Under the pieces are notes generated by a model. It saw only the letters and a program-made list of their open reading frames with translations. It did no database searches and was not told the DNA's origin. DNA of 64,000 bases, from the IMG/VR virus record IMGVR_UViG_3300037183_000031, positions 3,302-67,301 of that record; one strand, given 5' to 3'. Origin of the DNA: a virus. Its lineage: Duplodnaviria; Caudoviricetes. The position numbers and the translations under genes are program-made. Positions 3,262 to 41,648 of the stretch are shown here, piece by piece. The number at the start of each line of letters is the position of its first letter. Position 1 is the stretch's first letter.

Positions 3262-3875
3262 GATCGGATTTCCTCCATGAGCGCCTGGCGCTCGGTGTTC
3301 AGTTTCTGGATCACGGGGCTGCGACGCAGCGCCCGACGGTAGTGAATAAGATTCGCGGCAAGCTGCTTGGGCGACAGGCGCAGCCGGCGCGCCACGGTCG
3401 CCCGCTGGCCGTAGACGTCCCGCGGTATATCGACATCCAGGCATTCTCCGACCGCACGAACCTTGACAGGAAGCCCCAGGGCCCGCGTCGCGGTCAGGCG
3501 GGCGGCCTCGAGGCGACGGCACTTCATTTCGAGCTCCGCGGCCTCAACCCGCTCTTCTGGGCTCGCGCGGTCGCATGCATGGGCGTAGTCATCCTCGAGC
3601 GGCGACGTCTTCAGGAACCGCCAGTGCCGGGTTTCCTTGATCGCCGCCCGCCAACAAATGACGTAGAAAAAACCGTCGGCGCCGGTTCGGCTCGGATCCC
3701 ACTGCGGAACGTTTTCCAGCGCCGCCACCCAGGCGACCTGGCGGATGTGCTCTGGCTCCATGCGTCCAACCCTGATGGTGAACTTCCGCGTCACCGCTTC
3801 GACTTGACGATTGATCAACGCGAACAGCTCGGGATTGACCACCGGGGGTCGTGCGCTTACAGTTTCTTTCGACAT
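3258..3875 (-). CDS. Sigma-70-like factor (region 2 plus C-terminal HTH)
   Basis: EHIRQVAWVAALENVPQWDPSRTGADGFFYVICWRAAI resembles sigma region 2; QRATVARRLRLSPKQLAANLIHYRRALR resembles the region 4 HTH; AAGGAG RBS. Confidence 0.65.
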   Translation of the reverse strand: MSKETVSARPPVVNPELFALINRQVEAVTRKFTIRVGRMEPEHIRQVAWVAALENVPQWDPSRTGADGFFYVICWRAAIKETRHWRFLKTSPLEDDYAHACDRASPEERVEAAELEMKCRRLEAARLTATRALGLPVKVRAVGECLDVDIPRDVYGQRATVARRLRLSPKQLAANLIHYRRALRRSPVIQKLNTERQALMEEIRS

Positions 3876-25364: not shown

Positions 25365-26333
25365 TTAGACAGCCAGGCACTTGATGGCGAGGAACGGCAG
25401 GGAGTAACCAGCCGCGCCGCGGGCCTCGACCGAGCGGGCGAACTTCTTCTGGTTGAAGACCAGAGGATTCTGCGGGTCCACGATCATGATCGGGTGGGGA
25501 GCTTCCCGCTGTTGGAAGACGAAGGGCCTGATCCGGTCGGTGGAGAGCAAGTACCAGGCGCCCACATCCGGATCGTCGATCAAGCGCTCATTCACGATGA
25601 CCGTGATGTCGCCCTGGTAGACGTTCGTCGGCGTGGCAGCCGCGACGTTCTCAGTGGCGGCCACGTTCTTCACGATCTGGGCGATATTTCCGGCCTTCGC
25701 TACCGTGAGGGCGGCCTGCTCCTGATCGGGAGCGACCATCATCACGGTCGGCAGGACTCCCAGGGGGATCCCCGACTCACCCTTGAACTTCCGCATGGCC
25801 GCTTTCGCGGTAGCGTAGTTCGCGGCGCCGTTGGACAAGTTCATCGGGAGGGCCGCCAGCTTGTTGCTGTACGTCCCGAGGCTCGGATCGTCGACGTCAA
25901 CCGGGTGGCTGGTGTCGAAGAAGTGGGCCCCGTCGTACCCGAACGCCGTGGTGCCGTTCAGGACCGCCTGGGTGATCAGCTTCTCGGGCCAGCGCACGGC
26001 AACATCGGCCTGGAGTTCCTCGCGCCGGGCGTAGATGCCGGCCACGTCGTCCGAGATCTTGTTGCGGTCGATCGTGTAGGTGGACTCCCAGTCCTTGTTG
26101 ATCAGCGGGTAGCCGCGAGCCTTGATGTTGTCCATCACCTTTTCGCCGACCCACTCCTTCATGTCGGGGAGCTCGGCCAGCCATGCCTGGACCGTGCTCT
26201 CGGTGTTGGACGGGACCAACTCCGCGATCTTGTCCCAGTAGGAGGTCCTCCGCTTGTATGCGGCGGTGAACCGCATATCCAGCTGGAGGAAGAACGCTTG
26301 AAGAATGGCCGGTGTGAGCGGTGACGGAGGCAT
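25365..26333 (-). CDS. Major capsid protein (Mu gpT-like)
   Basis: WLAELPDMKEWVGEK, NKDWESTYTIDRNKISDD, FFDTSHPV and RPFVFQQRE. Confidence 0.92.
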   Translation of the reverse strand: MPPSPLTPAILQAFFLQLDMRFTAAYKRRTSYWDKIAELVPSNTESTVQAWLAELPDMKEWVGEKVMDNIKARGYPLINKDWESTYTIDRNKISDDVAGIYARREELQADVAVRWPEKLITQAVLNGTTAFGYDGAHFFDTSHPVDVDDPSLGTYSNKLAALPMNLSNGAANYATAKAAMRKFKGESGIPLGVLPTVMMVAPDQEQAALTVAKAGNIAQIVKNVAATENVAAATPTNVYQGDITVIVNERLIDDPDVGAWYLLSTDRIRPFVFQQREAPHPIMIVDPQNPLVFNQKKFARSVEARGAAGYSLPFLAIKCLAV

Positions 26334-27282: not shown

Positions 27283-28389
27283 TTACCCGGGATTCAGCAG
27301 GCTTTCCTTGTACGCCTGGACGTCCTCGATGCTGTTGCCGAGAAGCCGGGCGGCCTCGCGGTCGGCGTCCGTCAGGAGAGACGCGCCGGTCTTCCTCTGG
27401 GGAGTCCCCGCGCCGCCGTTCTTCTGGGGCGAGGTGTGCTTGATGAACGACCGCAGCGCCTGAACGCTGGCGCCGGTGATCTTCCCGTCGAACTGATACT
27501 CCTTCTCGAATTCCGCCTTCTTGGCGGGCTCGACACGAAGGCTGGTGACGGCCTCCTCGACCAGGGCGTTGAAGTCGCTGGTCAGCTTGACCGCGGCGTC
27601 GGTCTCGGTCTTGGCGCGAAGGGCCGCGGTCTCGCCGGCGTCCTTCTTGTGGGCGCGCAGAACACCGATGGCCGAGGCGATCTCGGTCTCACCCGTGAGG
27701 GCGGAGACCTCGGACGCGAGAGAGCGCAGGGCCGCCATCTTCGTCTTGCCTTCGTCGCCGTCGGGCTCGCCCTTTTTCTTGAACAGTTCGAAGTCGGCCG
27801 CCAGCGCGGTCAGTTGACCCAGCATCTTCGCCATTTCCTGATCCTTCGCTGCGCAAGCTGTGCATTCGGTGGTCATGTCTTCGTCTCCTTCGTCGTTTGC
27901 GTTCGCCGCTACAAGCGGGATGGTCTGATCCATTGCTGGGAGGTTGGTCAACGCCAGATTCCGAACCCAGGTGATCCGGTTCTTGTCGTGGTTGAACAAC
28001 GGGGAAAATTCGCAGTATTCGCCGGCCGCGAGGTAGCCCGCGGCGCGCGCGGTCCACTGCACGTTGGTCGCCCAAAGCTCGCCGTCGCGAACCTCGGGGA
28101 CGAACGAGCCGGCCGCGATTGCCATCTCGGGCGTCGGGTCCTGGATCGTCGTGCCGTGGTTGTAGTCGATCCGCAGGACCTTCCCGCGGAGCGCATAATT
28201 CGCCATGACCGAGGCTGCCGCCTGATCGTCGAACAGGAAGGTGCCCTTCTCGGTGGGGTTCTCTCCCTTGCGGAAGATTCGGAATTCAGTCGGAGGCTCG
28301 TGGGCTGTGCCGAGTTCCACGCTGAGGCGGATCTCAGTGCCTAGACCGCTGATGTCCGTGGCTCCCGGCGTCCGCTTCGACCTCTTCAC
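27283..28389 (-). CDS. Mu gpI-like prohead protease with scaffold C-terminus (start uncertain)
   Basis: IDYNHG, VQWTARAAGYLAAGEYCEFSPLF and ALTNLPA. Confidence 0.9.
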   Translation of the reverse strand: MKRSKRTPGATDISGLGTEIRLSVELGTAHEPPTEFRIFRKGENPTEKGTFLFDDQAAASVMANYALRGKVLRIDYNHGTTIQDPTPEMAIAAGSFVPEVRDGELWATNVQWTARAAGYLAAGEYCEFSPLFNHDKNRITWVRNLALTNLPAMDQTIPLVAANANDEGDEDMTTECTACAAKDQEMAKMLGQLTALAADFELFKKKGEPDGDEGKTKMAALRSLASEVSALTGETEIASAIGVLRAHKKDAGETAALRAKTETDAAVKLTSDFNALVEEAVTSLRVEPAKKAEFEKEYQFDGKITGASVQALRSFIKHTSPQKNGGAGTPQRKTGASLLTDADREAARLLGNSIEDVQAYKESLLNPG

Positions 28390-28463: not shown

Positions 28464-29150
28464 TCAGCGTCCAAGTTTGTCGCTCAACACGTCGGCGAGA
28501 GGAGCGGGAAAGTCCTTTATTTCAGGCTCCCAATCGCGTCCCTTCTCACTTGGCGCGCGGCCGAAACCTTCATCGGCTTCGACGTCGGGGGCCTCTTCGT
28601 CCACGCCGCCTTCATCGTCGGTGTCCTCTTTTGAGAGCGGGGTGAGGACGCAGCGACAGTTGAAATGGAGCGGTGGGGTCGCGTTCTCCCAGAACGGATC
28701 ATCCTGCGGAAGCACGGTGCCGTCGGCCTCTTCGCAGTCATCGTCAACACGATCGTCCTTGATGGCGTCGAAGCGAAGATAGGGCCGCGCACGCTTCACC
28801 GCCGGCGCGGTGTAGATCGAGGCGCGCCCCGCGCCGTAAGACTCCATGATGTTGGTGCGGAAGATCGTCTCGACCCGCGGCGCGTTCGGCGCGCCCCATT
28901 CGTCCGCGAGCTTGGCCGAGACCTCGGCTTTGAAATCGTCGAATGGTTTCCCCTCTGCGATAGCTGAGTCGAGCGCCCTCCACACGTCCGCGATCACACT
29001 CACGCGCGCGACGTTCGCCACGGTGAAGGCGCGCTCCCGCTCGTCTGCGTTCAGCCCGCGCCATTCCGATTTCTTCATCGGCACGCGCGCGCGATGGGCT
29101 GCGATCGCCTGCTCGAATCGAGCCGGGTCCGCCGAAGGGGCCTTGGCCAT
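28464..29150 (-). CDS. Mu gpF-like head morphogenesis protein
   Basis: RAFTVA, RVETIFRTN and DDPFWENATPPLHFNCRC; start ATG 29150. Confidence 0.9.
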   Translation of the reverse strand: MAKAPSADPARFEQAIAAHRARVPMKKSEWRGLNADERERAFTVANVARVSVIADVWRALDSAIAEGKPFDDFKAEVSAKLADEWGAPNAPRVETIFRTNIMESYGAGRASIYTAPAVKRARPYLRFDAIKDDRVDDDCEEADGTVLPQDDPFWENATPPLHFNCRCVLTPLSKEDTDDEGGVDEEAPDVEADEGFGRAPSEKGRDWEPEIKDFPAPLADVLSDKLGR

Positions 29151-29491
29151 CACGCGATCTTTTTGCGGATGAACATCGTTCGGTAGCCGTCGTCCTCTGG
29201 GATCGTGACGATCTGACCGGAGGCGAGCGTCACGCACCACTGGTAATCGAACCAGCCCGGCGTCGAGGTCTCGCCAGTCGTGAAGGCGTGTTGGACCAGA
29301 CCGAGCGTCGGATCGCCGACCACCGTGGCGACTGAGATCGTGGCGGGCGTGGACCGGTCCCGCTTGGCCATCAGGAATTGAAGCAGCATATATCCCGTCA
29401 GATTCAAGGGCGTGCCGTCCGGACCGATCAGAGTCTCCTGCAGATAGGGCCCGGTGTCTCCTTGACCGATCTTGAAATCTGCATCAGGCAT
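29150..29491 (-). CDS. BppU-N-like small virion protein
   Basis: FKIGQGDTGPYLQETL...LNLTG...GETSTPGWF...TIP. Confidence 0.65.
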   Translation of the reverse strand: MPDADFKIGQGDTGPYLQETLIGPDGTPLNLTGYMLLQFLMAKRDRSTPATISVATVVGDPTLGLVQHAFTTGETSTPGWFDYQWCVTLASGQIVTIPEDDGYRTMFIRKKIA

Positions 29492-29501
29492 GAATCACCC
29501 C

Positions 29502-32414
29502 TCACACGAGGAAGACACCAGCATCGTAAACGGTGTCATTGACTGGGAGCGCCGCCGTCGCGTACGCCGTGGCTCCGATCGCCCAGGGCGTGGCCGACCA
29601 CGCCCCCGCGACGTCCGTGAAGAACGCCGCGTGGAGAATTCGTGATCCACGTCCGACCGATGCGGCACTAGGTACGCCCAAGCCGGATCCGACAGGCGCT
29701 AGAATGAGACACGTAGATCCGGCTGATAAAGCAATCGCTGGTCCGATGGTGTTCTGAGTCCAACCGCCAGACAGACTGAAATGCGCAGTCACGCCGCCGT
29801 CGCCAATTGCGCAGCGCTCCATGGTGAAATCGGTGTCCTGGCTCAGGTTGGTCGCGAATCTATTCGAGTTGGCGCCCATGGCGCCCATGCCGCTACGTAG
29901 CGTGAATGTCCTCTTGTCGGTTTGACCAGTTATGCCGCCAGTGAACTGGCAGCCGAAAGCCGTGGCTTGACCGAACGCCACGCCGAAAAGAGTCCTGAAT
30001 CCACAACTGATAAAGTTGGCGAGCCCATCGAAGGTGGAACCTCCAGCGAAGTCCAAAAGAGCCGCCGAGACCAACACGTCAGTTGGAAGAATGAGGTTGG
30101 GCCAAGCCGGCAACGTGATCAGATCCACCGCATCCCCCGGGGCGAACAGCTGGGACGTCGCCGCGCTCACCAGGGTCGTCGCGTTTACCTGCGATTGCTT
30201 CGCGATGTCGACGGAGAAGTTACCGCCTGAATTGTGGGTGCGCATCAAAGGGGCATAGGTCGCCTGTCCCCCGGAGGTGTTCGCGCGTCGCGCAAACAGA
30301 GAGCGGGTTGGCGTGGACACATATCCCAGACCGTTGAAGTCCGTGGTCGTAGACGTCAGGAATCCCGCTGACACGGCCGGGTTAAGATCAGCTGCCGCCG
30401 TGATCGATACCGATCCGGCCAGGACCGTCGGCGTCCCGATGATGAGGAATCGAATGTTCGTCGCGCATCGAAATCCCCACACGATCGCATCTGCTGCTGA
30501 CACGCTTCCGGCCCCCGCCGCAATGGTCAGACGCGGCGACACCGTGAAGACGGCGCCCCACATCCGTGCGCAGAACTCCCGCATTGAAGCGATCGGGGTC
30601 CCAGACGTCAGGGCGTCTGCCTCGTCGTTGCCCGCCACAGGATCGAGGAACATGCCGGTTCCATTCGTCGCGGCTTGCTGCCAATACGGCGTGGGCAGAA
30701 GCTGCCGAACCAGCAGGGCAACCCCGTCGGTGGATTTGATGCAGAAGAGGCCATCCTCAGCGGCGGAGAGGGACAGTTTGTCGACAAGATAAAGCGTCTT
30801 CAGGCTCTGCACCCAGATCAGGTCTCCGGTACAGAACGTGGAGTATGGCAGCGTCTTCAGAACGGCGATTGACGGTACCGATGTTGTGCATGCACCCATT
30901 AGGACACCACCGGAATTGATGACGCTTGAGGAACCATAGGGGTTAGATGCTACACCAAGGGCGACAGTCGGAGCGTTTCTGGTCGTAGCCGCCATCTCTT
31001 GGGCCGTCTCTACGGTCCTGGTCGGAGCCTGGATACTGTGGCTCATCGTCTGCTGACCACGGAAGGCGACCAGCACAGTCGGCACCGGGACGATTCGGGA
31101 CGCTCCCGCGCGCGCGTCGCTGCGGATGCCCGCCGAGGATAACAGCGTGATCGTTCCGATCGACGCCGAGCCGTAGCCTGCCCGCGAGCCCGCCCCCGCC
31201 GGCCTGAGCGTCGGTGCGATCGACGCCGCCCCCGCCGCTTGCTTACTCGCCGCGCCCGCGGGTTGTAGGAACGGCCCGATCGAGGCAGCTCCGGCTGCCG
31301 CGCGCGACGCGATGCCGGGGACCGTCAGAACCCGGGCGATTGACGCCGCGCCACTTGCTGAAGTACTCGCCGCACCGGCCGGGCGAAGCGTGACTGCGAT
31401 AGATGCCTGGCCCCCAGCAGATGGCGAGCGGATGCCGGCCGATTGCAACAGGGTACTGGCGATGGTGGTGATCGACGCCGCGCCGTACTTGGCGGCTGAT
31501 GCGGCGCCGGACGACGCGAGCACGGGCGCGATGGTGCCCGCTCCGCCGCGAGTTGACGAGCCCGCCCCCACCGGGGAGAGCGCTACCGTCGTAGCCGCGG
31601 AGCCGCCGCGCGCGCTTGATGCCGCTCCGACCGGAGCGGTGATGATGGTGACTCCCGCGGCGCCGAATTTTGCCGATGTCCGCGCGCCGACCGGCCCGAC
31701 CGCGGGTGACAGACTAGCGGAGCCGCCGCGCGCTGAGGATCCGATCCCAGCGGGGGCAAGTCCGATGGTCAGCCCGCTAGCCCCCCCGCGCGCACTCGAT
31801 GCGATTCCGGGAGAAGAAAGATTGATGCTGGTATTCAGACTGGCCGCGCCCGCGCGCGCGCTCGAGGCCGCCCCGACTGGCACCCAGACGGGATTTACCG
31901 ACGCCGCCCCAGCCCGCGCGACCGATGCCGACCCGACCGGTGCCAACGAAGGGGAGAGCGAAGGCGATCCGGCCCGAGCGCTCGATGCGCCGCCAGCGGG
32001 AGACAGTTTCGGCAGAATCGACGCCGCGCCTCCAGCTGCTCTCGACGACGCCCCGACCTGGCCCGGTTGCAGGGTTGCGGATGCAGCGCCGGCCGAGGCG
32101 AAGGATCTTCCGCCAACCGGGCCCAGGGCAAGCACCGCAGATGCCGATCCGCCGCGCGCCGAAGATGCAGCCCCAACGGCCCCGAGAAGCGTCTGGCCGA
32201 TTGTTGCTGCGCCCGCGCGCGATGCCGACGCGGCTCCCGAGGGCGTGAGACGTGGCGCAAGTGTCGCCGCCCCCGCTCTCCGTGGGCTAGCAACTCCCAC
32301 GGCCGTCAGTACGATCAGGATCGAAGAGGCGCCGCAAACTGCTGAACTTCTGACGCCGCTTGGGCTCAGGAGCTTCGGCGCCAGGGCCAGTTGGATTATG
32401 GCCGCGTTCGCCAT
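29502..32414 (-). CDS. 970 aa fibre-like protein: Ala/Gly/Ser repeats plus spike-like C-terminus
   Basis: About 21 repeats of about 20 aa (L-x-P-x-G-A-A-S-x-A-R-A-G-A-A-S-I), then a beta-rich region. Confidence 0.75.
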   Translation of the reverse strand: MANAAIIQLALAPKLLSPSGVRSSAVCGASSILIVLTAVGVASPRRAGAATLAPRLTPSGAASASRAGAATIGQTLLGAVGAASSARGGSASAVLALGPVGGRSFASAGAASATLQPGQVGASSRAAGGAASILPKLSPAGGASSARAGSPSLSPSLAPVGSASVARAGAASVNPVWVPVGAASSARAGAASLNTSINLSSPGIASSARGGASGLTIGLAPAGIGSSARGGSASLSPAVGPVGARTSAKFGAAGVTIITAPVGAASSARGGSAATTVALSPVGAGSSTRGGAGTIAPVLASSGAASAAKYGAASITTIASTLLQSAGIRSPSAGGQASIAVTLRPAGAASTSASGAASIARVLTVPGIASRAAAGAASIGPFLQPAGAASKQAAGAASIAPTLRPAGAGSRAGYGSASIGTITLLSSAGIRSDARAGASRIVPVPTVLVAFRGQQTMSHSIQAPTRTVETAQEMAATTRNAPTVALGVASNPYGSSSVINSGGVLMGACTTSVPSIAVLKTLPYSTFCTGDLIWVQSLKTLYLVDKLSLSAAEDGLFCIKSTDGVALLVRQLLPTPYWQQAATNGTGMFLDPVAGNDEADALTSGTPIASMREFCARMWGAVFTVSPRLTIAAGAGSVSAADAIVWGFRCATNIRFLIIGTPTVLAGSVSITAAADLNPAVSAGFLTSTTTDFNGLGYVSTPTRSLFARRANTSGGQATYAPLMRTHNSGGNFSVDIAKQSQVNATTLVSAATSQLFAPGDAVDLITLPAWPNLILPTDVLVSAALLDFAGGSTFDGLANFISCGFRTLFGVAFGQATAFGCQFTGGITGQTDKRTFTLRSGMGAMGANSNRFATNLSQDTDFTMERCAIGDGGVTAHFSLSGGWTQNTIGPAIALSAGSTCLILAPVGSGLGVPSAASVGRGSRILHAAFFTDVAGAWSATPWAIGATAYATAALPVNDTVYDAGVFLV

Positions 32415-32424
32415 GCGACCTTAC

Positions 32425-33576
32425 TTAACCAAACAGGGAGATATTCATCATCACCCCGGGGCCTCCGTTGCCGCCCGCGCCGCTGTTGGTGCCGTTGAGC
32501 GAGCCGCCGCCTCCGCCTCCGCCCCCGCCATAGCTGCCGCCGTTTCCCCCGGTTTTGACTGTCCCGGAGGAACCTCCAGCACCTCCACCCCCGACGCTCA
32601 TGAAGTCGTCCGTGGTCTTGGAATTGCCGTTGGTGCCTGCCGCATTGGCTGCGCCCGTGCCGCCGCTCTGGACGCCGCCTCCGCCGTTGGCTCCGGCTTC
32701 AGTCGCATTCGCTGCCGAAATGCCGCCTCCGCCTCCGCCCCCGCCAGGGCTCCAAACGTAACTGGCTCCAGAACCCGTGAATGTGCCGGCTCCGCCAGCC
32801 CCTGCCCCTGCCCCAACACCGCTGGCACCTCCAGCCCCACCGGCCGTGGCAGATGGATTCATCTGCATTCCAGTGGCGACGCCGCCCGCGGGACCTCCAG
32901 TAGCTCCCGCGACACCACCAAGTCCTGTTCCGCCAAAATTCCCGACGACTGATCCCGCCAGCGTGTTTGAGGTAGCGGCCGTGGCGTTGTTTCCGTTCGT
33001 GGAATCGACGGTGATCGCTGTGCCGCCGACCCCAAGCGTTCCGATTACAACGGCTTGGGTTGGCGAGTTTGCGAAGAAGTTTTGAAATCCCCCTTGGTGG
33101 AACGATGCTGAGCCAGCACCACCTCCCGTGCCTCCTCCTCGCACGGTCGCCGTCAAGCCTCTGCGCCCGGAGCCTCCGCCTCCACCTGGGGCGACCGAAA
33201 ACATCTCCTGGACGCGCGAGTTGCCCAGGACGATCCACATACCGCTGGCGTTGAACACTTGGACATCAACACCGCCAAGCTCAGGCCCGTATGGGCCGAT
33301 GTTGAACAAGTACGGGTAGACGATGTCATTCCAGATCGCGTCTAGCGTGGGTTGGTCCAGGTGCCGCAGAAATGCCTTGTCCCGCAACATGCGCGGCAGC
33401 AACTCAATGTGTTCATTGCGGTCGCGCGTGAGCACCTGAACTGCAATGTCCTCGCGTCGACGCCGCAGCCAGTCCCGATCTCGTGGAGACAGTTGAGAGG
33501 CGGCGCGGAATCTCTCCGACGCACCCGTGAAGAGATGCAGACCGCTCGGACCTGTTGCTGTAGAGATTTCGATCAT
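32425..33576 (-). CDS. Glycine-rich fibre-like protein
   Basis: Start ATG 33576; charged helical N-terminus, then GGGGGSG-type repeats. Confidence 0.7.
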   Translation of the reverse strand: MIEISTATGPSGLHLFTGASERFRAASQLSPRDRDWLRRRREDIAVQVLTRDRNEHIELLPRMLRDKAFLRHLDQPTLDAIWNDIVYPYLFNIGPYGPELGGVDVQVFNASGMWIVLGNSRVQEMFSVAPGGGGGSGRRGLTATVRGGGTGGGAGSASFHQGGFQNFFANSPTQAVVIGTLGVGGTAITVDSTNGNNATAATSNTLAGSVVGNFGGTGLGGVAGATGGPAGGVATGMQMNPSATAGGAGGASGVGAGAGAGGAGTFTGSGASYVWSPGGGGGGGGISAANATEAGANGGGGVQSGGTGAANAAGTNGNSKTTDDFMSVGGGGAGGSSGTVKTGGNGGSYGGGGGGGGGSLNGTNSGAGGNGGPGVMMNISLFG

Positions 33577-33583
33577 GGGATCT

Positions 33584-35692
33584 CTAAAATGTGAGCGTGA
33601 CCCCGAGGGCCGGCGCGGTGTTCCAAAGAACACCACCGGCTGGGAAGATCGAGGGTAGGGCGCCGGCCCCCACGCCGGTCAGCCTCCAACAGATCGGAGT
33701 CGCCGCGCCTCCCGCCGCAGCCCACGCTGGCAGATACCTACTGGGGCCCATGATCGTCCTGAACTGTGATGCCGTGGTGCCAAGTGAGTCGATTTTGACC
33801 ACCAGCCAATAGAGCCCGTAGTACACGGCTTTGGAGAAAGCTCCTGGGTTCTTCACGCCCACCGTTGTTCCCATGGCGAAGGCACCACCGGACGTGGGTT
33901 CTTTTCGCAGGCACTGCGGATATCCAGAGAAATTGTGGTCGTCATAAATGCCGATCCGAATGTTAGAGCCCGCCGTGGCCGGCGCGTTCATCTGCTCGAC
34001 CATGGAGGCGCCGATCTGAAGGTTGGGCTTTGTGAAAAAGATCGGCATCGCGAACATGTCACCGGCAACCGCCAGGTAGGGTGCTCCCCATCCTTCCGTG
34101 TCTGCCAGATAGACCTGTCCACTAACGATGATGCGACGGTCCGACCCCACAAATTCGATCGCGCCAGTGACCAGATCGGCTGGCGTGAAGTCAGCCAGGT
34201 CGGGCGCTGCCCTCATCGCCGCGACTGCTCTCCAGCACTGAAGCGCCGCCCGCTGCTTTCCGAAGTCGTTGAAGTGGTTCCCATCCAGCGCGAACCACGA
34301 AAGAACGTTGGCTGGTAGATTGCTGTCACCGCCCATGGCAGCGTCGAAGTCGACAATCTGCACCATCGCGTCGAATTCCTGCGCGGTGGTCAGCATGGTC
34401 GCGTTGAGGTTCGTTACGTCGGCATCAGCCGCCGCATGGCTCGCCGCCGTGGCCCCCGTGAAATTCGTATTGCTGAACCCATACTGACCATTGCTGTAAC
34501 CCAGCAGAGCACGGGCCAGCGTGTAGCGAATGCTCGTGAACGCTCCCGTGGCGTTGCCGCTGAGCACCACCGTCGTCGCGTTGGTCACCGACGAGATCGT
34601 CTTGCCCGCGGTGAAGGCTCCCTGCGCGTCCGTTTCAACGATGGACTGTCCCACATCGGTCGCGGCAAGAAACGCCATATTGGCGTCGGTGAAATTCGTG
34701 GTCACGCCCGTCGTGACGCCACTGCCTGATGAATGCGTGACGTTGCGCTCCGGGAGCCGCGGGAAGTTGCACCACAGGACCGGCGGCGGCTTGAAGGCTT
34801 CGATCCAACAGCCATCGAGCGTGAATGTCGACGCCGATACGGTTGTGATGCGCACCGAGATCGTCTGCCCTGCATTCGCGGCAGACAGGCCATTGACGGG
34901 TCCCGTGAATCGCACCCCATAGGCCGTCGTTGCCTGCGTCGATGCAGCGCTGAGGGTGTCCGTGCGTCCGTTGATGCCCGACGTGCCGCCAGCCGTCGCC
35001 GCCGTCCCACCCCACGTGACGATCAGCGAGCCACCAGAGAGCGCGACCATGTTGAAACAGATCGGCTCGCCCTGGTAGTCCTGCGGGATCGTGAACGTCG
35101 CCGTGGACGTGCCGGCGGAGTCGACCACGGTCGCCTGCTTGGAAGTCGCGGATCCAGATGTGAAGTCGGCACTCGAGGTCGGAGACGTGGAGAAGTTAGC
35201 GCCGAACGCCCAGTTACCAGACGTCGCGGCGAGATATATCGAGGAAGCCCGCGCCTTGCTGATCAACGCGCGCATGGCATTTGCCCATGCCGAGCGCAGC
35301 AGCGTCTGGGAACCAGATGCGGTGTTGCCGACGTCGTTGGCGCCCCAGCAAAACAGATAGGCGCCGCCCGACCGGACGAACGGCGGAGAGATGCGTCCGT
35401 CGTGGTCCATTTCACTTAGCGCGCGCGCGAAGCCACCCTGTGAACGCCCGGGAGCAAGGAACTGAGCCCCACCTACCCCATGGTTCCTGACCACATTCGG
35501 GGTCAATCCCATGCCGGCCGCGAACAGATTGTGAAACAGGGAGTTGGCGTTCAGCCCCGTAATGGATGACGAGTACCCAGTCCCCATGAACGGATCGTCG
35601 AGGTAGGAATGTCCGAAGCAGTCCAGCGCCTTGATCGGGATGGGCGGGCGGCTGGTTTGCGTGCCTGAATGGCCGCCTGATCGACCGGGCAT
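33584..35692 (-). CDS. SGNH/GDSL hydrolase-containing virion protein
   Basis: Blocks FGHSY (I), GVGGAQ (II), GAND (III) and DGNH (V), with long beta-rich inserts. Confidence 0.75.
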   Translation of the reverse strand: MPGRSGGHSGTQTSRPPIPIKALDCFGHSYLDDPFMGTGYSSSITGLNANSLFHNLFAAGMGLTPNVVRNHGVGGAQFLAPGRSQGGFARALSEMDHDGRISPPFVRSGGAYLFCWGANDVGNTASGSQTLLRSAWANAMRALISKARASSIYLAATSGNWAFGANFSTSPTSSADFTSGSATSKQATVVDSAGTSTATFTIPQDYQGEPICFNMVALSGGSLIVTWGGTAATAGGTSGINGRTDTLSAASTQATTAYGVRFTGPVNGLSAANAGQTISVRITTVSASTFTLDGCWIEAFKPPPVLWCNFPRLPERNVTHSSGSGVTTGVTTNFTDANMAFLAATDVGQSIVETDAQGAFTAGKTISSVTNATTVVLSGNATGAFTSIRYTLARALLGYSNGQYGFSNTNFTGATAASHAAADADVTNLNATMLTTAQEFDAMVQIVDFDAAMGGDSNLPANVLSWFALDGNHFNDFGKQRAALQCWRAVAAMRAAPDLADFTPADLVTGAIEFVGSDRRIIVSGQVYLADTEGWGAPYLAVAGDMFAMPIFFTKPNLQIGASMVEQMNAPATAGSNIRIGIYDDHNFSGYPQCLRKEPTSGGAFAMGTTVGVKNPGAFSKAVYYGLYWLVVKIDSLGTTASQFRTIMGPSRYLPAWAAAGGAATPICWRLTGVGAGALPSIFPAGGVLWNTAPALGVTLTF

Positions 35693-36192
35693 TACGTCAA
35701 CTCCACTACGACGGCAGTGCCCCCCGCCAGCGAACTAATCGCATTTATGGCGCCCTTCCAGTTGTCGTCCCACTCCGAGGTGCCACCAGTGCCATCGTTC
35801 GCCGCGTTCGAACATGGAGCCAGCGCCATGTGATACGCGGTCGCGGTCGGCGTTTGGCCAAACCCGAGATAGATCACGGTCGTTCCGGTGTTCTCCACAC
35901 GGCATCTGACCCGGTTCGCATTGGACGCGAGGATCGATCCCGAGGTCGTTCCCACCGCCGTCTGCGCCGCCGCGCCCGCCGTGGTCGACGCCATGGGTAG
36001 CGGGCGCACCACAACACCGAAGAGGGTTGACGCGGGCGTCGCGCCCTTGACGTCGGCGAGTTCCGTTGCGGCGGCACCCGCGATGTTGATCCGCTCGCGC
36101 TCAACCGTGATAGCGGAGACGGTCAGAGACGTCGTATCGAGTCTTTTATCCGGGCTGGTCGCCTGGAGAACGCCAATTGTCGAATCAGCCAT
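35692..36192 (-). CDS. Small beta-sandwich virion protein
   Basis: ILASNANRVRCRVENTGTTVIYLGFG...WKGAINAIS. Confidence 0.65.
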   Translation of the reverse strand: MADSTIGVLQATSPDKRLDTTSLTVSAITVERERINIAGAAATELADVKGATPASTLFGVVVRPLPMASTTAGAAAQTAVGTTSGSILASNANRVRCRVENTGTTVIYLGFGQTPTATAYHMALAPCSNAANDGTGGTSEWDDNWKGAINAISSLAGGTAVVVELT

Positions 36193-36206
36193 GCGACCGA
36201 CTCAGA

Positions 36207-37055
36207 TCAGAGTACGGCGATTTTATTGGGGCCGTTGTCCCAGGGTATCGTGAGGTTCGTCGGACCGCCGAGCGTCAGAGGGAATCCGCTGTTGGTGGTC
36301 GACACATCGGCCTGATGTCCGCTGGCGATCGGGCCCGAGATGGCGGAAACGACGAGCTTAAGGTCCCCTTGCGCGGCGCCTGTCGTAAGGGTGGCCGTGA
36401 TGCCGTTCGAGAACACAATCGCCGTGCCGTTCGGGATCGCGCCCTCCAACTTGCGCACCCAGATCGTGGTGGCGGACGAGGCAGCATCTGCGGTGCAAAG
36501 CACCTGAATCTTTCCGTCCACCAGCAGGATCGGGACGCCGGTCGTGGTGTCGATGATCAGCACGGCATCGATCGTTCCAGCCGGAACGCCGGTATAGGGC
36601 ACGTCGTCGGCGTCCAGCACGCCATTGACCAGCGTGGGGGTTGTGAGCGTCTGGTTCGTCCCGAGCGCGCCCGCATCAACGTCTGTGTTGGCCGCCGCCG
36701 CGGTCATATTGACCGCGTACCCACCCGAGGTGTAGGCGGCGCTGCCCGTGCAGGCGAGCCCGTCCTGGAGCGTGGTCAGGTCGAAGGTGTTCGCCGCGAC
36801 GTTCGCTGCCTTGAACACTCCGTTTGCCGCGAGATTGCCGCCGATGCGTCCGGTCAGGATGATGTCCCCGTTGGCGAATCCATGCGCGGTGCTCGTCACT
36901 GTGATCGGACTCGCGGCGCCGGTGCAGCCCGTGATCGCCTTGATCTGGGCGTCGACGGTCGAAAGGTTGGTCAGCTGAGTTTTGATGACGTCGCTGTTCC
37001 AGTCGCCGTTATCCGCCAGCGTCTGCTTGCCTTTTTCGAAGAATCTGACCGACAT
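36207..37055 (-). CDS. Virion structural protein with inserted domains
   Basis: Core WNSDVIK...GVLDADDV...LTIPWDNGPNKI, interrupted by an ITVTSTAHGFANGD (FCCH-like) insert. Confidence 0.65.
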   Translation of the reverse strand: MSVRFFEKGKQTLADNGDWNSDVIKTQLTNLSTVDAQIKAITGCTGAASPITVTSTAHGFANGDIILTGRIGGNLAANGVFKAANVAANTFDLTTLQDGLACTGSAAYTSGGYAVNMTAAAANTDVDAGALGTNQTLTTPTLVNGVLDADDVPYTGVPAGTIDAVLIIDTTTGVPILLVDGKIQVLCTADAASSATTIWVRKLEGAIPNGTAIVFSNGITATLTTGAAQGDLKLVVSAISGPIASGHQADVSTTNSGFPLTLGGPTNLTIPWDNGPNKIAVL

Positions 37056-37091
37056 GTTGTAAATCCTCTCGCTGTTTCGGACGTTTGTCTA

Positions 37092-37379
37092 CTAGCCCCC
37101 CTGGGCCGCAATCTTCTCAGACCCGAGATAGGCGGTCAGTGCGTCGATTAACAGGTCCTTTTGTTCGCGGCGATCCGCGATGGACTTGGCGCGCAGTGCC
37201 TTCACGATCTCGGTCGGAATCCAGTGTCGGAACTGGGTCAGCGATCCGCCCTTCGCCCGATCGTAGGTCCTGCCCTCGCCCCACCTCCAAAGCCCGCGCA
37301 CGTCCGACCGCTTGCGCTGGCGTTCCCCTTGGACGACGACGGTTTCCGTTCGACGCTTGACCGGGCGGGCAGTTGTCAC
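37092..37379 (-). CDS. Ribbon-helix-helix-like DNA-binding protein
   Basis: TQFRHWIPTEIVKALRAKSIADRREQKDLLIDALTAYL (strand, helix, helix). Confidence 0.6.
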   Translation of the reverse strand: MTTARPVKRRTETVVVQGERQRKRSDVRGLWRWGEGRTYDRAKGGSLTQFRHWIPTEIVKALRAKSIADRREQKDLLIDALTAYLGSEKIAAQGG

Positions 37380-39517
37380 AGCCCCTCCACGATATCGGCG
37401 CGTCCCGCGAGGTTCGCCATCAGCCGCGCCCGTACCACCACGGCTTGCAGTTCTTCGCCCTGCTTGCCCTTCGCCAGCTTCACCATGCGGGCCTTGAAGT
37501 CAGCGGGATCGCTCGCGGCCTTGACCTCGCGATTGATGCTCACCAGAAGATCGCGCATGGCCTCCCGGCCGCGGGCGGCAGCCTTCAGGACCAGTGCATC
37601 GGCGTAGCGGGCGGCGACCTTGGCCCCCTTGATGGTCCGACCGTTCGAGCGAAGCGCCACGCTCCCGCCGGCGCCGGCCGACGCGCGCACCTTGCCCGTC
37701 CCGGTGCGGCGCTTCAACTTGGTTCGGAGATCGTCCAGGCTCATGGCCGACATGCTGCCATAGGCCCTCTCGTCGTTTCGATGGGCGAGATAACTGGCCT
37801 TGGCCGCGTCCGCGCTGGCGAAGCCGAGGAAAAACTTGTCCTCATCGTGGGCCTTGAAGTCCGGGGCCCGCAACTGGTGGACCACGTATACCTCCTGGGC
37901 GCTCGCGTCGGGCCCGAGATAGACGTCAAGCTCCTCGCCGTCCGCGCCGATGTGACCCTCCAGGTAGCCATAGTCGGTCAGCATCGTGGTCGCGCCGATA
38001 CGCTTCCCATCCTCGTCGGTCCACAGGCGGATCGAGCCCGCGGGGTTCTCGATGCAGATCGGGAAGCCGGCAAAGTCCTTCCGCAACAGGGGCTCGCCGT
38101 CGGAGGCGGACAGCTTGGCGCTATTTTTCTTCGCCGCGGCGCCGGGAGATCCCCCCCCGCCGGCGCCTGACTGGCCACCGCCGCCACCCCCGGGATTCAC
38201 GCCAGCCGCTTTCTGATTCTGCGCGAATTCTTCCGCGCGCTGCTCTTTCTGTTTGTCCTCGAGCTCCTGGACCTCCTCCTCGCTGAGCATCGGGTAGCCG
38301 GCGCGGTCGATCACGGCGCGGATATCGATCGGCACGCCGGCGGCGACCATGGCGCCCAGCGCCTGGCCCAGAAGCAGCATTGACTGGGCTTCATCCTTGG
38401 CGTCGTTCTCCTGGGTGGCTCCGTACTCGGGGCGGGGGGCAAGCTCAGCGTCGCCGTAGTTGGCCTTCGTCCAGTAGGTGAGCACCTGGAGCCGAAGACA
38501 CTTCGCAACCTTCGCATCCTGCGCCTTGTAGTCCGAGCGGATGCCCTCCATCACGTCCGCCGCGCGCCCGCCACCGAGACCGCCGCCCTTGGCTTCCGTG
38601 GTGAGGTTCTGACCGTTCACACAGATCGCGATATCCACGTCGATCTGTTTCTTGAAATCGTCGAAGGTGGTGTAGCCGCGGCTCTTGGCCTCCAGCATCT
38701 CGACGTCGAATGACTTCCCCTCGCCGTCCTTGCCCGCGGGGACGATGATCGCACCGTCGGCGCCGGCGTTGATCAGATCGGCTTTGAATCGCTGCTTGAC
38801 CTCGTCGTCGGCGTTGGACGGGACAATCCCCTTCTTCATCGGCGCGCCGTAGACCTCGTTATACCGGGCCCAGTCGCGATAGTTCCACGCGCGCATGAGG
38901 TACAGCCGAGACAGGGGGCGAATCAATCCGTGGATCCAGCCGTAGATGAATCCGCGCGGGCACCAGACCACCCACTTCCCGTCACTGCGGGGGTTCTCGT
39001 CGATCTTCGGCAACTCCTCCATGCCGTTGGCCGTGATGATCCAAAAGCTGAAGGTGGCCCAGTTCCAATAGACGAATTGTGGGTGCCACACGCGAAGGCG
39101 CGGGGTGTGCCAGAGCCGGCCCTTCGCGTCCTTCTCGCCGCGCCAAATGATTTCTGCGACGCCGAAGCCAAGCTGATGACCCCACCGCATCAGCTCGGCG
39201 ATGGTCTCACTGGGGAATAGCTCATCCCAGATTCCAGGCTGCTTGTCGTCCCCCCCGAGATAGCTCGCGACCTCGGCCGCCTTCGGGGTCTCATCCGCCG
39301 GCTTGCAGGTCAGCGGCGTGGCGAGGAGCCCACCGGACCGTGTGCTCAGGATGCCGTTGATTCGGTCGTCCCGTAGTATCTGGTCCGCGAACATGGACGC
39401 CGTTCGGAAATTCCCGTACTCAAACGCGCGGAGGATCCCCTCCACGTCCACGTTGTTGTCGACCCCAGACCAGGAGCCATACGGAATTTGTACGAGGGGC
39501 GCGCGGCCCAGAGCCAT
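37376..39517 (-). CDS. Portal protein (Mu gp29 / DUF935-like) with inserted inorganic pyrophosphatase-like domain
   Basis: WARYNEVYGAPMKKG and DIAICVNGQNLTTE are portal motifs. FPICIENPAGS...YGYLEG..GADGEELDVYLG...DEDKFFLGF (about 38075-37780) is InPase-like. Confidence 0.88.
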   Translation of the reverse strand: MALGRAPLVQIPYGSWSGVDNNVDVEGILRAFEYGNFRTASMFADQILRDDRINGILSTRSGGLLATPLTCKPADETPKAAEVASYLGGDDKQPGIWDELFPSETIAELMRWGHQLGFGVAEIIWRGEKDAKGRLWHTPRLRVWHPQFVYWNWATFSFWIITANGMEELPKIDENPRSDGKWVVWCPRGFIYGWIHGLIRPLSRLYLMRAWNYRDWARYNEVYGAPMKKGIVPSNADDEVKQRFKADLINAGADGAIIVPAGKDGEGKSFDVEMLEAKSRGYTTFDDFKKQIDVDIAICVNGQNLTTEAKGGGLGGGRAADVMEGIRSDYKAQDAKVAKCLRLQVLTYWTKANYGDAELAPRPEYGATQENDAKDEAQSMLLLGQALGAMVAAGVPIDIRAVIDRAGYPMLSEEEVQELEDKQKEQRAEEFAQNQKAAGVNPGGGGGGQSGAGGGGSPGAAAKKNSAKLSASDGEPLLRKDFAGFPICIENPAGSIRLWTDEDGKRIGATTMLTDYGYLEGHIGADGEELDVYLGPDASAQEVYVVHQLRAPDFKAHDEDKFFLGFASADAAKASYLAHRNDERAYGSMSAMSLDDLRTKLKRRTGTGKVRASAGAGGSVALRSNGRTIKGAKVAARYADALVLKAAARGREAMRDLLVSINREVKAASDPADFKARMVKLAKGKQGEELQAVVVRARLMANLAGRADIVEGL

Positions 39518-39910: not shown

Positions 39911-41365
39911 CTACATCCGCCGCTTCGCGACCACGGCCCCCTGCCCACTGTAGATAACCTTCGGCTCATAGGAATTCCAGCAGCCCGACGTCACGTCAAC
40001 CTGATCGTCGTGGGCATCGTTCACGCCGGTGAAGTCCTCCATCTCCCGCAGGTACTCCTTCAGCCAGGGAGCGGAGATTGGGACGAGTACTCGCCCACCA
40101 TCCGGGTCGTTCCAGGCAGCCGCGACCGGCTGGGCCCGGGTGAACTTGTCGCCCTGCGGATCGGTGTCGCCCTCCACGCCTCCCGGATCGACCAGCTCCA
40201 GCATGTCCGGGATCGCCCGCGCCATGCCCACGGCCTCAACGTTTGCCACCGTGTTACCCCAGCGGGCTTGAAAGGCTCGCAGGTCATCCATGAACGTTGG
40301 GACGGTGACCTGCTTTCGGTAGACCTCGAGAATCCATCCCTTGCGGGTGTGTGGCTCGCGTCCCTCTATCGCCATCGCCATGATCGAGCTGAAGTCGTTG
40401 GATGTTTTCTTGGTCGCCGCCGGGTCGGCGTAGATGACGATTTGCTTCCCGGTGATGCTGAAGGTGGTGTGATCGTAGTAGGTCGGCGAGCCGAAGACCG
40501 TCGCTCCTCGAGGGCGTGGACGTCCCTGGTACATCGCCGCGAACGTATATTCGTTCGTCTTGCGGATGCTCGACAGGTGCCCGGAGTGCGCGCACGTTCG
40601 CGAGGCGCATTGTTCCACTGGGTATTGCTCAGGCCACAGCGCTTCCCCCGGAGCACGCCCGAGGGGATCGGCCGGGAAGCCGTGGGCAGGATCTTCGACC
40701 TCAGCGATGGCGGTGAGGTTCAGGACCTCCCAGCCGCCCTGTTCGATCAGCCGACCGATCAGATCGTCCTTGTGCCACCTCGTCATGACCACCAGGACCG
40801 AGGCGCCTTCCAGCCGGGTCATGGCCACGTCCGTGAACCAGCCCCACACCGATTCCCGTTGGATCTCTGAGTCGGCTTCCTCGCGGTTCTTGATCGGATC
40901 GTCGATGACCAGGAGGCCCGAGACGCCCTGCCCGGTGAGACCGCCGCCAACGCCGCCGGCGAGCAATCCACCGCCGTCCGTGGTGCGCCACTCCGCCTTG
41001 CTGGTGCTGTCCGTCCGAAGCTCCACGCCCGCGCGCAAGGCCAGCTCCCGCGTCGGGCCCGACTTGGACAGCGCCTGGGTGTCCGAATAGCTCATGTAGG
41101 CGTGGGTATCGGCTGGCGATTGGGTGAGCCACCAGGCCAGGCCGTGCTGGATCGTGGTGGTCTTCGCGTGCCGCGGCGGGAACGAAATCACGGCGCGGAC
41201 CACCTCGCGCCTCGCCCGCTCGATCAGGTCGATCAACGGCTTGAGGTGCGGCGGCGGCGGATGGTGCGGCGACATGCGCCGAATGAAGTTCGAAAGGGAC
41301 TCGCCGCCGGAGTCGACCTCTTCGAGCTCCAGAAGCTCGACTTCCTCCTCGGCGGTCAGCGCCAT
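39911..41365 (-). CDS. terL: Terminase large subunit
   Basis: PPRHAKT (Walker A), LVIDDPIKN (Walker B), MTRWHKDD, YADPA and HDDQVD; start ATG 41365. Confidence 0.93.
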   Translation of the reverse strand: MALTAEEEVELLELEEVDSGGESLSNFIRRMSPHHPPPPHLKPLIDLIERARREVVRAVISFPPRHAKTTTIQHGLAWWLTQSPADTHAYMSYSDTQALSKSGPTRELALRAGVELRTDSTSKAEWRTTDGGGLLAGGVGGGLTGQGVSGLLVIDDPIKNREEADSEIQRESVWGWFTDVAMTRLEGASVLVVMTRWHKDDLIGRLIEQGGWEVLNLTAIAEVEDPAHGFPADPLGRAPGEALWPEQYPVEQCASRTCAHSGHLSSIRKTNEYTFAAMYQGRPRPRGATVFGSPTYYDHTTFSITGKQIVIYADPAATKKTSNDFSSIMAMAIEGREPHTRKGWILEVYRKQVTVPTFMDDLRAFQARWGNTVANVEAVGMARAIPDMLELVDPGGVEGDTDPQGDKFTRAQPVAAAWNDPDGGRVLVPISAPWLKEYLREMEDFTGVNDAHDDQVDVTSGCWNSYEPKVIYSGQGAVVAKRRM

Positions 41366-41372
41366 GGAGCCT

Positions 41373-41648
41373 TCAATTGCGGGGCGGCGTGTTCGAGATC
41401 GAAGCCGTCCGACACCAGCGCTTGGCGGCCTCGACGATCCGCATGACCAGCGCGCCATCGTCACGACCGGATGCGTATGTCAGTTCGTACATTCTGCCGT
41501 CATCCCCCTTGGCGCGAATTCCAAACACCAGGGACTGCCTTGGGCGGCTTGGCTCAACCCACACCACCGAGACGTCGCTCATGTCGCCGGTCTTTTCCAG
41601 ATACTGTTTCAACAGATCGAGAGCCTCCCTAACGCTCACCTCTTTCAC
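41373..41648 (-). CDS. Hypothetical protein
   Basis: GTG 41648 overlaps the upstream stop; MKEVSVREALDLLKQYL. Confidence 0.55.
   Translation of the reverse strand: MKEVSVREALDLLKQYLEKTGDMSDVSVVWVEPSRPRQSLVFGIRAKGDDGRMYELTYASGRDDGALVMRIVEAAKRWCRTASISNTPPRN

Follow-up and report, generated by a model that had tools for sequence, protein, structure and literature searches.

A Mu-type phage portal protein with an InPase domain inserted ahead of its C-terminal tail, and its possible role as capsid-loaded cargo

The window analyzed here is a 64,000 base stretch, positions 3,302 to 67,301 of the IMG/VR virus record IMGVR_UViG_3300037183_000031 (Caudoviricetes), a contig of 67,301 bp; coordinates are positions in the window. 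The source is an uncultivated myophage whose genome is about 67 kb long and whose head genes are of the Mu type. An open reading frame (ORF) at 37376–39517 (minus strand) runs as a single frame from ATG to TGA without interruption and encodes 713 amino acids (aa). Its translated sequence displays a Mu-type portal domain followed by an InPase domain, which is related to the family I inorganic pyrophosphatases (PPases). A sequence-only reading of this DNA had described one 713 aa frame holding a set of short motifs, and these are found at residues 487–495 (ICIENPAGS), 515–518 (DYGY), 525–532 (ADGEELDV), 557–561 (HDEDK) and 699–707 (ARLMANLAG). The parts of the ORF are as follows.

37376..39517, minus strand: whole portal-InPase ORF, 713 aa, stop codon included.
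38207..39517, minus strand: portal core, residues 1–437, from Pfam, PHROG 113 and Foldseek on the AlphaFold2 (AF2) model.
38087..38206, minus strand: Gly-rich flexible linker, residues 438–477, with a predicted local distance difference test score (pLDDT) of 32–35 and the AKLSA471/S472 motif inside.
37682..38086, minus strand: InPase module, residues 478–612, a family-I-PPase-like beta-barrel with the C-terminal end RRTGTGKVRA612.
37634..37681, minus strand: second short linker, residues 613–628, low pLDDT, with VALRS624 inside.
37379..37633, minus strand: ancestral portal C-terminal helical tail, residues 629–713, basic (pI about 10.5).

Pfam places Portal_Mu/DUF935 (PF06074) at residues 44–407 (E = 8.5e-45, 154 bits against a curated cut-off of 23.9) and InPase (PF18823) at residues 481–601 (E = 4.6e-29, 101.4 bits against a curated cut-off of 26.8), where the match spans profile positions 15–134 of 135. 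Both scores are far over the cut-offs, and the portal core and InPase domain that had been recognized from the letters alone are thus recovered by profile hidden Markov models (HMMs). The domain had been put at about 100 aa, which is too short, as the enzyme module here is about 125–135 aa. PHROGs concur with Pfam, giving the portal family phrog_113 together with families that bear InPase. The full-length AF2 model shows a portal core to residue 437, of which residues 413–437 are the last crown helix, then a disordered linker, a confidently predicted InPase domain, a short linker and three to four helices predicted with moderate confidence. In Foldseek the core matches best with the JBD30 portal (8rka, E = 2.7e-15, probability 1.0), followed by the Mu portal structures 9knu and 9khx (E = 7e-14 to 9e-13, probability 1.0). 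The identities of the parts of the ORF are near certain.

A search of 5.8 billion proteins gives about 40 clusters whose alignment with the 713 aa protein runs over the full length, at 39–61% identity, and which display the same Pfam pair. A domain-restricted search raises the number of clusters with the portal-InPase architecture to about 88 (90%-identity clusters, several sources). GC content at third codon positions (GC3) is 0.84 in the portal core, 0.87 in InPase and 0.84 in the tail. The Mu-type portal-InPase fusion was not found in 50,697 phage records, where the best matches span the portal core only.

Three relatives do not contain InPase, and two of these (P0041 and P0043) keep the same helical tail at the end. 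A tail-only HMMER scan (residues 619–713) gives matches solely at the extreme C-terminus of proteins, including eight plain Portal_Mu proteins of 489–610 aa. The second linker (613–628) aligns with the segment directly before the tail of unfused portals. The tail profile also matches Mu gp29 in register, at residues 476–510 of 512, with 9.0 bits; the best of 2000 shuffles of gp29 reaches 4.4 bits. BLASTP of the tail against Mu gp29 shows no match, and the likeness is seen solely by the family profile with shuffled controls. The resemblance to the gp29 terminus that had been noted from the sequence is therefore specific but weak. As the tail is found at the end of unfused Portal_Mu proteins and of Mu gp29, it is an ancestral feature of Mu-type portals. 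The InPase domain and the Gly-rich linker were inserted between the crown and this ancestral tail, which agrees with the insertion near the C-terminus described in the sequence-only reading.

A different segment is seen in P0042, an unfused Portal_Mu relative of 631 aa. This protein displays a Walker-A-like GGPRTGKTT segment at the InPase slot (alignment A1, columns about 620–800) and does not have the canonical tail. Pfam gives no match for P0042 beyond Portal_Mu. The P-loop segment may be an alternative cargo at the InPase slot.

An AF2 model of residues 460–713 (40 sequences) has a pLDDT above 90 at residues 479–604 and displays an eight-stranded barrel and two helices. In a Foldseek comparison of this model with the PDB the top matches are all family I inorganic pyrophosphatases (E = 3.4e-5, probability 1.0). 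VIA-align matches well over a hundred family I PPase chains with Z values of 6.0–6.6, about 112 aligned residues and a root mean square deviation of about 3.5 Å. A Z value of 6–6.6 is middling by itself, yet the matches are homogeneous and consistent with Pfam. The family I profile PF00719 is not matched by the 713 aa protein; PF06074 and PF18823 alone are reported by Pfam at E values up to 1. The module is similar to E. coli Ppa and M. tuberculosis Rv3628 (PF00719) in having an OB-like barrel (oligonucleotide/oligosaccharide-binding fold) with two helices. Unlike these family I PPases it is not a free-standing housekeeping enzyme and is about 40 residues shorter, with a shortened beta2-beta3 hairpin and without the loop before helix A. 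The segment from IENP to DYGY is nine residues shorter than in E. coli Ppa, and the model still shows two short strands there. The phage InPase domain was defined by Iyer, Burroughs, Anand, de Souza and Aravind (2017; PMC5512222), who describe it as being without the beta-hairpin insert of classical family I PPases.

The VIA-align range sets model residue 24 (protein residue 483) on residue 13 of E. coli Ppa, which places E490 on the catalytic E20. This equivalence is anchored on the VIA ranges because hhalign, run with the InPase family against the single E. coli Ppa sequence, gives conflicting global and local registers for the first strand (probability 6–46%). Assignments to K29, E31 and R43 of Ppa are at the motif level only. 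At that level R497 corresponds to K29 and Y516 to Y55, D526, E528 and D531 correspond to D65, D67 and D70, and the D558-E559-D560-K561 cluster to the D97-D102-K104 region; H579 and R580, where helix A ends, are probably the equivalents of Y141 and K142. The signature here is D526-G-E528-E-L-D531, i.e. D-x-E-x-x-D, which is the form found in most InPase members and differs from the classical D-x-D-x-x-D (E. coli D65, D67 and D70).

Twelve positions are invariant across 114 InPase domains from different carriers: E490, R497, Y516, G517, D526, D531, G535, Q548, D558, E559, K561 and A572. Residue 528 is acidic in 113 of the 114 (Glu in 90, Asp in 23), and R580 is present in 98. As the metal- and phosphate-binding residues are kept, the domain is most likely an active Mg-dependent phosphoanhydride hydrolase. 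As Ppa E31, R43 and Y51 have no conserved counterparts, the hairpin region is shorter and PF00719 is not matched, it looks like a metal-dependent hydrolase with a leaving-group pocket unlike that of the housekeeping pyrophosphatase.

InPase domains that are 50–67% identical to the one described here are mostly found on Portal_Mu proteins. The domain is also present at the N-terminus of gpI-like protease proteins (Mu-like_Pro; P0066, P0071 and others), upstream of MuF domains (Phage_Mu_F; P0082, P0107 and others) and at the C-terminus of Phage_portal_3 portals (P0094 and P0102). The tree built from the 114 domains groups the copies on proteases in one clade (SH-aLRT 96) and those on MuF proteins in a second (SH-aLRT 89), both nested within a tight clade dominated by Mu-portal copies. 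The tree demands at least four carrier changes, and its topology suggests a few discrete transfers and not constant shuffling. At one viral contig locus (L003) a Phage_portal_3 portal is without InPase and the adjacent MuF protein bears it; the comparison of a portal lacking the domain with a neighbour carrying it comes from this single locus. A scan of viral contigs for the protease-InPase protein P0071 gave no match. P0096 (631 aa) shows a weak match to a DRAT-like ADP-ribosyltransferase (E = 1e-5, at the cut-off), then InPase, then a portal-type tail, and may be a two-cargo variant.

All of the InPase carriers, i.e. Portal_Mu, gpI protease, MuF and Phage_portal_3, are procapsid-interior proteins. 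Since this residence is what the carriers have in common, capsid loading appears to be what is selected and not a function in the portal channel or packaging motor. Here an effector-type domain is found on a virion-internal carrier and recurs on alternative carriers, as in other head-protein cargo fusions. A function linked to the portal or to packaging of the DNA, which had been suggested from the sequence, is disfavored because closely related InPase domains are also borne by the prohead protease, by MuF and by a portal family that is unrelated.

The InPase module is flanked by short motifs. The motif [A/K]-L-[S/T/R/K]-[A/T], 6–15 residues ahead of InPase, is kept in about 35 of 40 relatives within a linker that is hypervariable around it. 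Its form here is AKLSA471/S472, a candidate head-protease site. Mu gp29 has AALSA in a comparable place (427–431), and a cut there would free an 81-residue, 9.0-kDa piece. In the Mu virion the last 124 residues of gp29 are missing, and the authors attribute this loss to cleavage by protease I. At the other end the module closes with RRTGTGKVRA612/S613 (window 37679–37711, residues 603–613). The corresponding RRTGTGKIR[A/S/H] sequence stands behind the InPase barrel in portal, protease and Phage_portal_3 proteins alike (including P0066, P0071, P0094 and P0102) and therefore accompanies InPase onto other carriers. Two of these, the Phage_portal_3 fusions P0094 and P0102, terminate exactly at the motif, which marks the module boundary. 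A third similar motif, VALRS624, is ahead of the tail and is likewise found in unfused portals.

If the motifs are protease sites, the calculated products would be a mature portal of 51.5 kDa, an acidic enzyme of 15.5 kDa and a basic tail of about 10 kDa. A gpI-type prohead protease is encoded in the same head module as the portal-InPase gene (27283–28389) and would be the processor of the portal C-terminus. A shift of gpH from about 64 to about 56 kDa has reportedly been observed, which serves as a lead only. The SuMu proteomics paper and an assembly review do not mention gp29 processing, a literature search on processing of PB1-like portals gave nothing relevant, and no mention of gp19 was found in E217 supplements.

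A further short module, W-x-V-(L)-x-x-x-G-x-x-L-G-x-x-x-T-x-x-x-A, is seen repeatedly (P0071, P0059, P0118 and P0042); in protease-type proteins it comes behind InPase, and in some portals it is close to the C-terminus.

The portal-InPase fusion is known in kind. Iyer et al. (2017) reported InPase versions fused to portal domains (BcepF1 gp124) that may be packaged and injected, listed InPase among the cargo domains of polyvalent proteins, and proposed that it acts on nucleotide-like substrates or clears pyrophosphate (PPi). The novelty of a portal-borne and perhaps delivered enzyme implied by the sequence-only reading is overstated, because the same idea was published in that paper. Besides the 88 or so Mu-type clusters, InPase is found in 410 isolate records, 293 of which are Pseudomonas phages. 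The domain is in the portals of hundreds of cultured phages, including the PB1-like Pseudomonas phages used in therapy.

The closest comparison is with the Pbunavirus/BcepF1-type portals (Pa193 and E217 gp19, JG024 gp18, BcepF1 gp124). Pa193 gp19 (PDB 9b41, 765 aa) has no density in cryo-electron microscopy (cryo-EM) maps at residues 529–765, and a pyrophosphatase is not mentioned in the paper; the InPase-bearing C-terminus of E217 gp19 is likewise without density and the pyrophosphatase likewise unmentioned. With phmmer, residues 470–594 of the protein described here align with residues 627–746 of 9b41 (E = 1.7e-11). JG024 gp18 (L005:1602-3896), which bears the annotation ‘minor head protein’, is also Phage_portal_3 plus InPase. 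Both kinds of portal have one InPase on a long flexible region after the crown, and in both the portal-InPase gene lies between the terminase gene and a MuF-like gene. The portal parts are without sequence match, i.e. Phage_portal_3/DUF1073 in the Pbunavirus portals and Portal_Mu/DUF935 here. In the former InPase is at the extreme C-terminus, whereas the protein described here has it in an internal position, ahead of an 85-aa conserved tail that Mu-type portals have natively. The Pbunavirus portals (Phage_portal_3 plus InPase) are mostly annotated in GenBank as ‘minor head protein’ or ‘hypothetical protein’.

Mu gp29 (9khx, 9knu) and JBD30 gp32 (8rka) belong to the same Pfam family as the portal described here, are the best structural matches to its core and share its C-terminal motif. 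The head genes TerL, portal, MuF, gpI protease and gpT-like capsid are likewise present in Mu and JBD30. The portals of these phages are 512–526 aa with no enzyme domain, whereas the portal described here has gained an InPase module of 135 aa and a Gly-rich linker. The portal and MuF genes, adjacent in Mu, are separated here by about 8 kb of unrelated genes. The fusion also resembles MuF-toxin/effector fusions and polyvalent proteins (Iyer et al. 2017) in that an enzymatic domain is carried on a protein built into the procapsid, with presumed delivery to the host. It differs from these in having no processing metallopeptidase and a single cargo domain, which is placed internally and not at a terminus of its carrier, the essential portal.

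The Mu-type version stands apart in that its portal belongs to another family, InPase is internal so that the native tail is kept, and the insertion falls in the segment reportedly cleaved in Mu. It adds an enzyme situated in a portal region that Mu is reported to remove at maturation, flanking conserved motifs, and movement among portal, protease and MuF proteins. The insertion site, the flanking motifs and the carrier changes together suggest selection for presence inside the capsid and not for portal function.

In all solved portals known to us the chain leaves the crown toward the capsid interior, so the InPase module would be in the head lumen. The proposed mechanism has the portal as a carrier, with InPase inserted in the flexible C-terminal region behind the crown, so that twelve enzyme copies would be loaded into the procapsid. 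The twelve enzyme domains on the portal described in the sequence-only reading may hold for the procapsid but perhaps not for the virion, as the C-termini of the Mu, Pa193 and E217 portals are unseen. The Mu gpI-type head protease would cut the tail region of the portal, as is reported for gp29, and free the enzyme in the head. At infection the freed enzyme would leave the head together with the DNA and be active at an early stage in the cytoplasm of the host. Its substrate there could be a phosphoanhydride derived from a nucleotide, or PPi, whose hydrolysis would favor the early synthesis of nucleic acids. The best-supported mechanism, with a probability of roughly 0.55, is a cargo enzyme that is loaded into the capsid and then probably released and ejected. 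What the analysis shows directly is the identity of the domains, how the insertion is arranged, the fold, the conserved residues, the recurrence of the fusion and the change of carriers; the location inside the capsid is deduced from portal topology, and proteolytic release, ejection, catalytic activity and substrate are likewise proposed. If release and injection occur, the fusion would illustrate clearly how a structural protein can serve to load an enzyme that acts early.

Several points weigh against this mechanism. The middle Asp of the family I signature is Glu in this protein, and Ppa E31, R43 and Y51 lack conserved equivalents (W499, variable 506 and H/T514, in a register that is inferred and not superposed). 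Therefore the substrate may not be PPi, or the activity could be weak. A literature search gave no experimental evidence of PF18823 catalysis, virion presence or ejection. The proposed cut sites are short motifs, and the absent density in Mu, Pa193 and E217 could mean disorder and not cleavage. A module that is still covalently bound to the portal cannot be injected, and a folded 15-kDa barrel would either have to unfold or get through a channel about 3 nm wide.

A more specific form of the cargo mechanism would have the module bracketed by protease sites at AKLSA471/S472 and GKVRA612/S613 and released as a free, injected 15.5-kDa enzyme that destroys a nucleotide-type phosphoanhydride of host defense and not plain PPi. 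This is a doubtful proposal at present. If true, a pre-packaged anti-defense hydrolase would be common to this clade and the therapeutic Pbunaviruses.

Of the other explanations, the one that survives best is that InPase remains covalently attached to the crown of the portal in mature virions and acts there, not in the host, e.g. as a plug or in retention or sensing of the DNA end, with the PPase chemistry secondary or unused. The position of the domain between two flexible linkers on a structural protein fits this, the region is simply invisible in Pa193 and E217 as a flexible tether would be, and the strongly basic tail behind the domain could bind DNA. However, a purely structural role does not explain catalytic-type residues that are invariant in 114 copies. 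The protease-scaffold and MuF proteins also carry the domain and neither has a role in the portal channel, and the packed capsid holds no obvious pyrophosphate or nucleotide substrate. A permanent tether is unlikely on this evidence.

The enzyme could instead act while heads are assembled or DNA is packaged in the producer cell, at the latest during filling of the procapsid, clearing PPi or a nucleotide by-product at the portal vertex. Twelve copies would adjoin the packaging motor, and Iyer et al. (2017; PMC5512222) point out that reactions of polymerases and nucleotidyltransferases can be driven when PPi is removed. However, the portal C-terminus faces the capsid lumen and not the terminase side, the protease-scaffold and MuF carriers are unrelated to the motor, and many related phages have unfused portals. 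Terminases turn ATP into ADP and inorganic phosphate, and PPi is not made. A packaging-motor role is ranked low and appears improbable.

Slightly less probable again is that InPase is a decaying passenger, or a pseudo-enzyme retained merely as a spacer. Three classical family I active-site positions are without a conserved equivalent, as given above, but charged residues are under strong purifying selection in the 114 copies, which go down to about 38% identity, the fold is predicted with confidence and the module has moved between carriers repeatedly. A pure spacer role is also ranked low. Lastly, an assembly or frameshift artefact that joined two separate genes, a concern with any contig from a metagenome assembly such as this one and one raised in the sequence-only reading, is very unlikely because about 88 independent clusters share the contiguous architecture, GC3 is uniform along the ORF and the native portal tail continues in the same frame downstream of the insert.

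The portal-InPase gene is part of a Mu-type head module on the portal's strand, in which neck, sheath and tape measure genes come after the major head protein. The other head genes are as follows.

39911..41464, minus strand: large terminase, just upstream of the portal (PHROG 38, E = 1.4e-82).
28464..29240, minus strand: MuF-like minor head protein with no effector domain (PF04233, E = 1.9e-17; PHROG 220).
27283..28389, minus strand: Mu gpI-type prohead protease (PF10123, E = 1.6e-31; PHROG 328).
25365..26333, minus strand: major head protein, Mu gpT-like (PHROG 371, E = 2.9e-59).

The block of about 8 kb between portal and MuF (window 29150–37379) encodes products of 95, 282, 166, 702, 403 and 970 aa. 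These have no Pfam match, and PHROG gives solely a weak tail-protein match for the 282-aa product. The 95-aa ORF (window 37092–37379), for which a family match was not found, starts on the portal stop codon with an overlap at 37376–37379.

The two ends of the contig (1–120 and 67170–67301 of the contig) overlap directly over about 110 bp with two mismatches. The contig is therefore most likely a complete genome of about 67.2 kb that is circularly assembled or terminally redundant. No tRNA genes were found in it. A scan of genome contigs gives a single relative, on a contig binned to a Phenylobacterium metagenome-assembled genome, and GC content is 58–66%; from these two observations the host is tentatively an alphaproteobacterium. 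Several relatives are on contigs of 64.6–67.5 kb.

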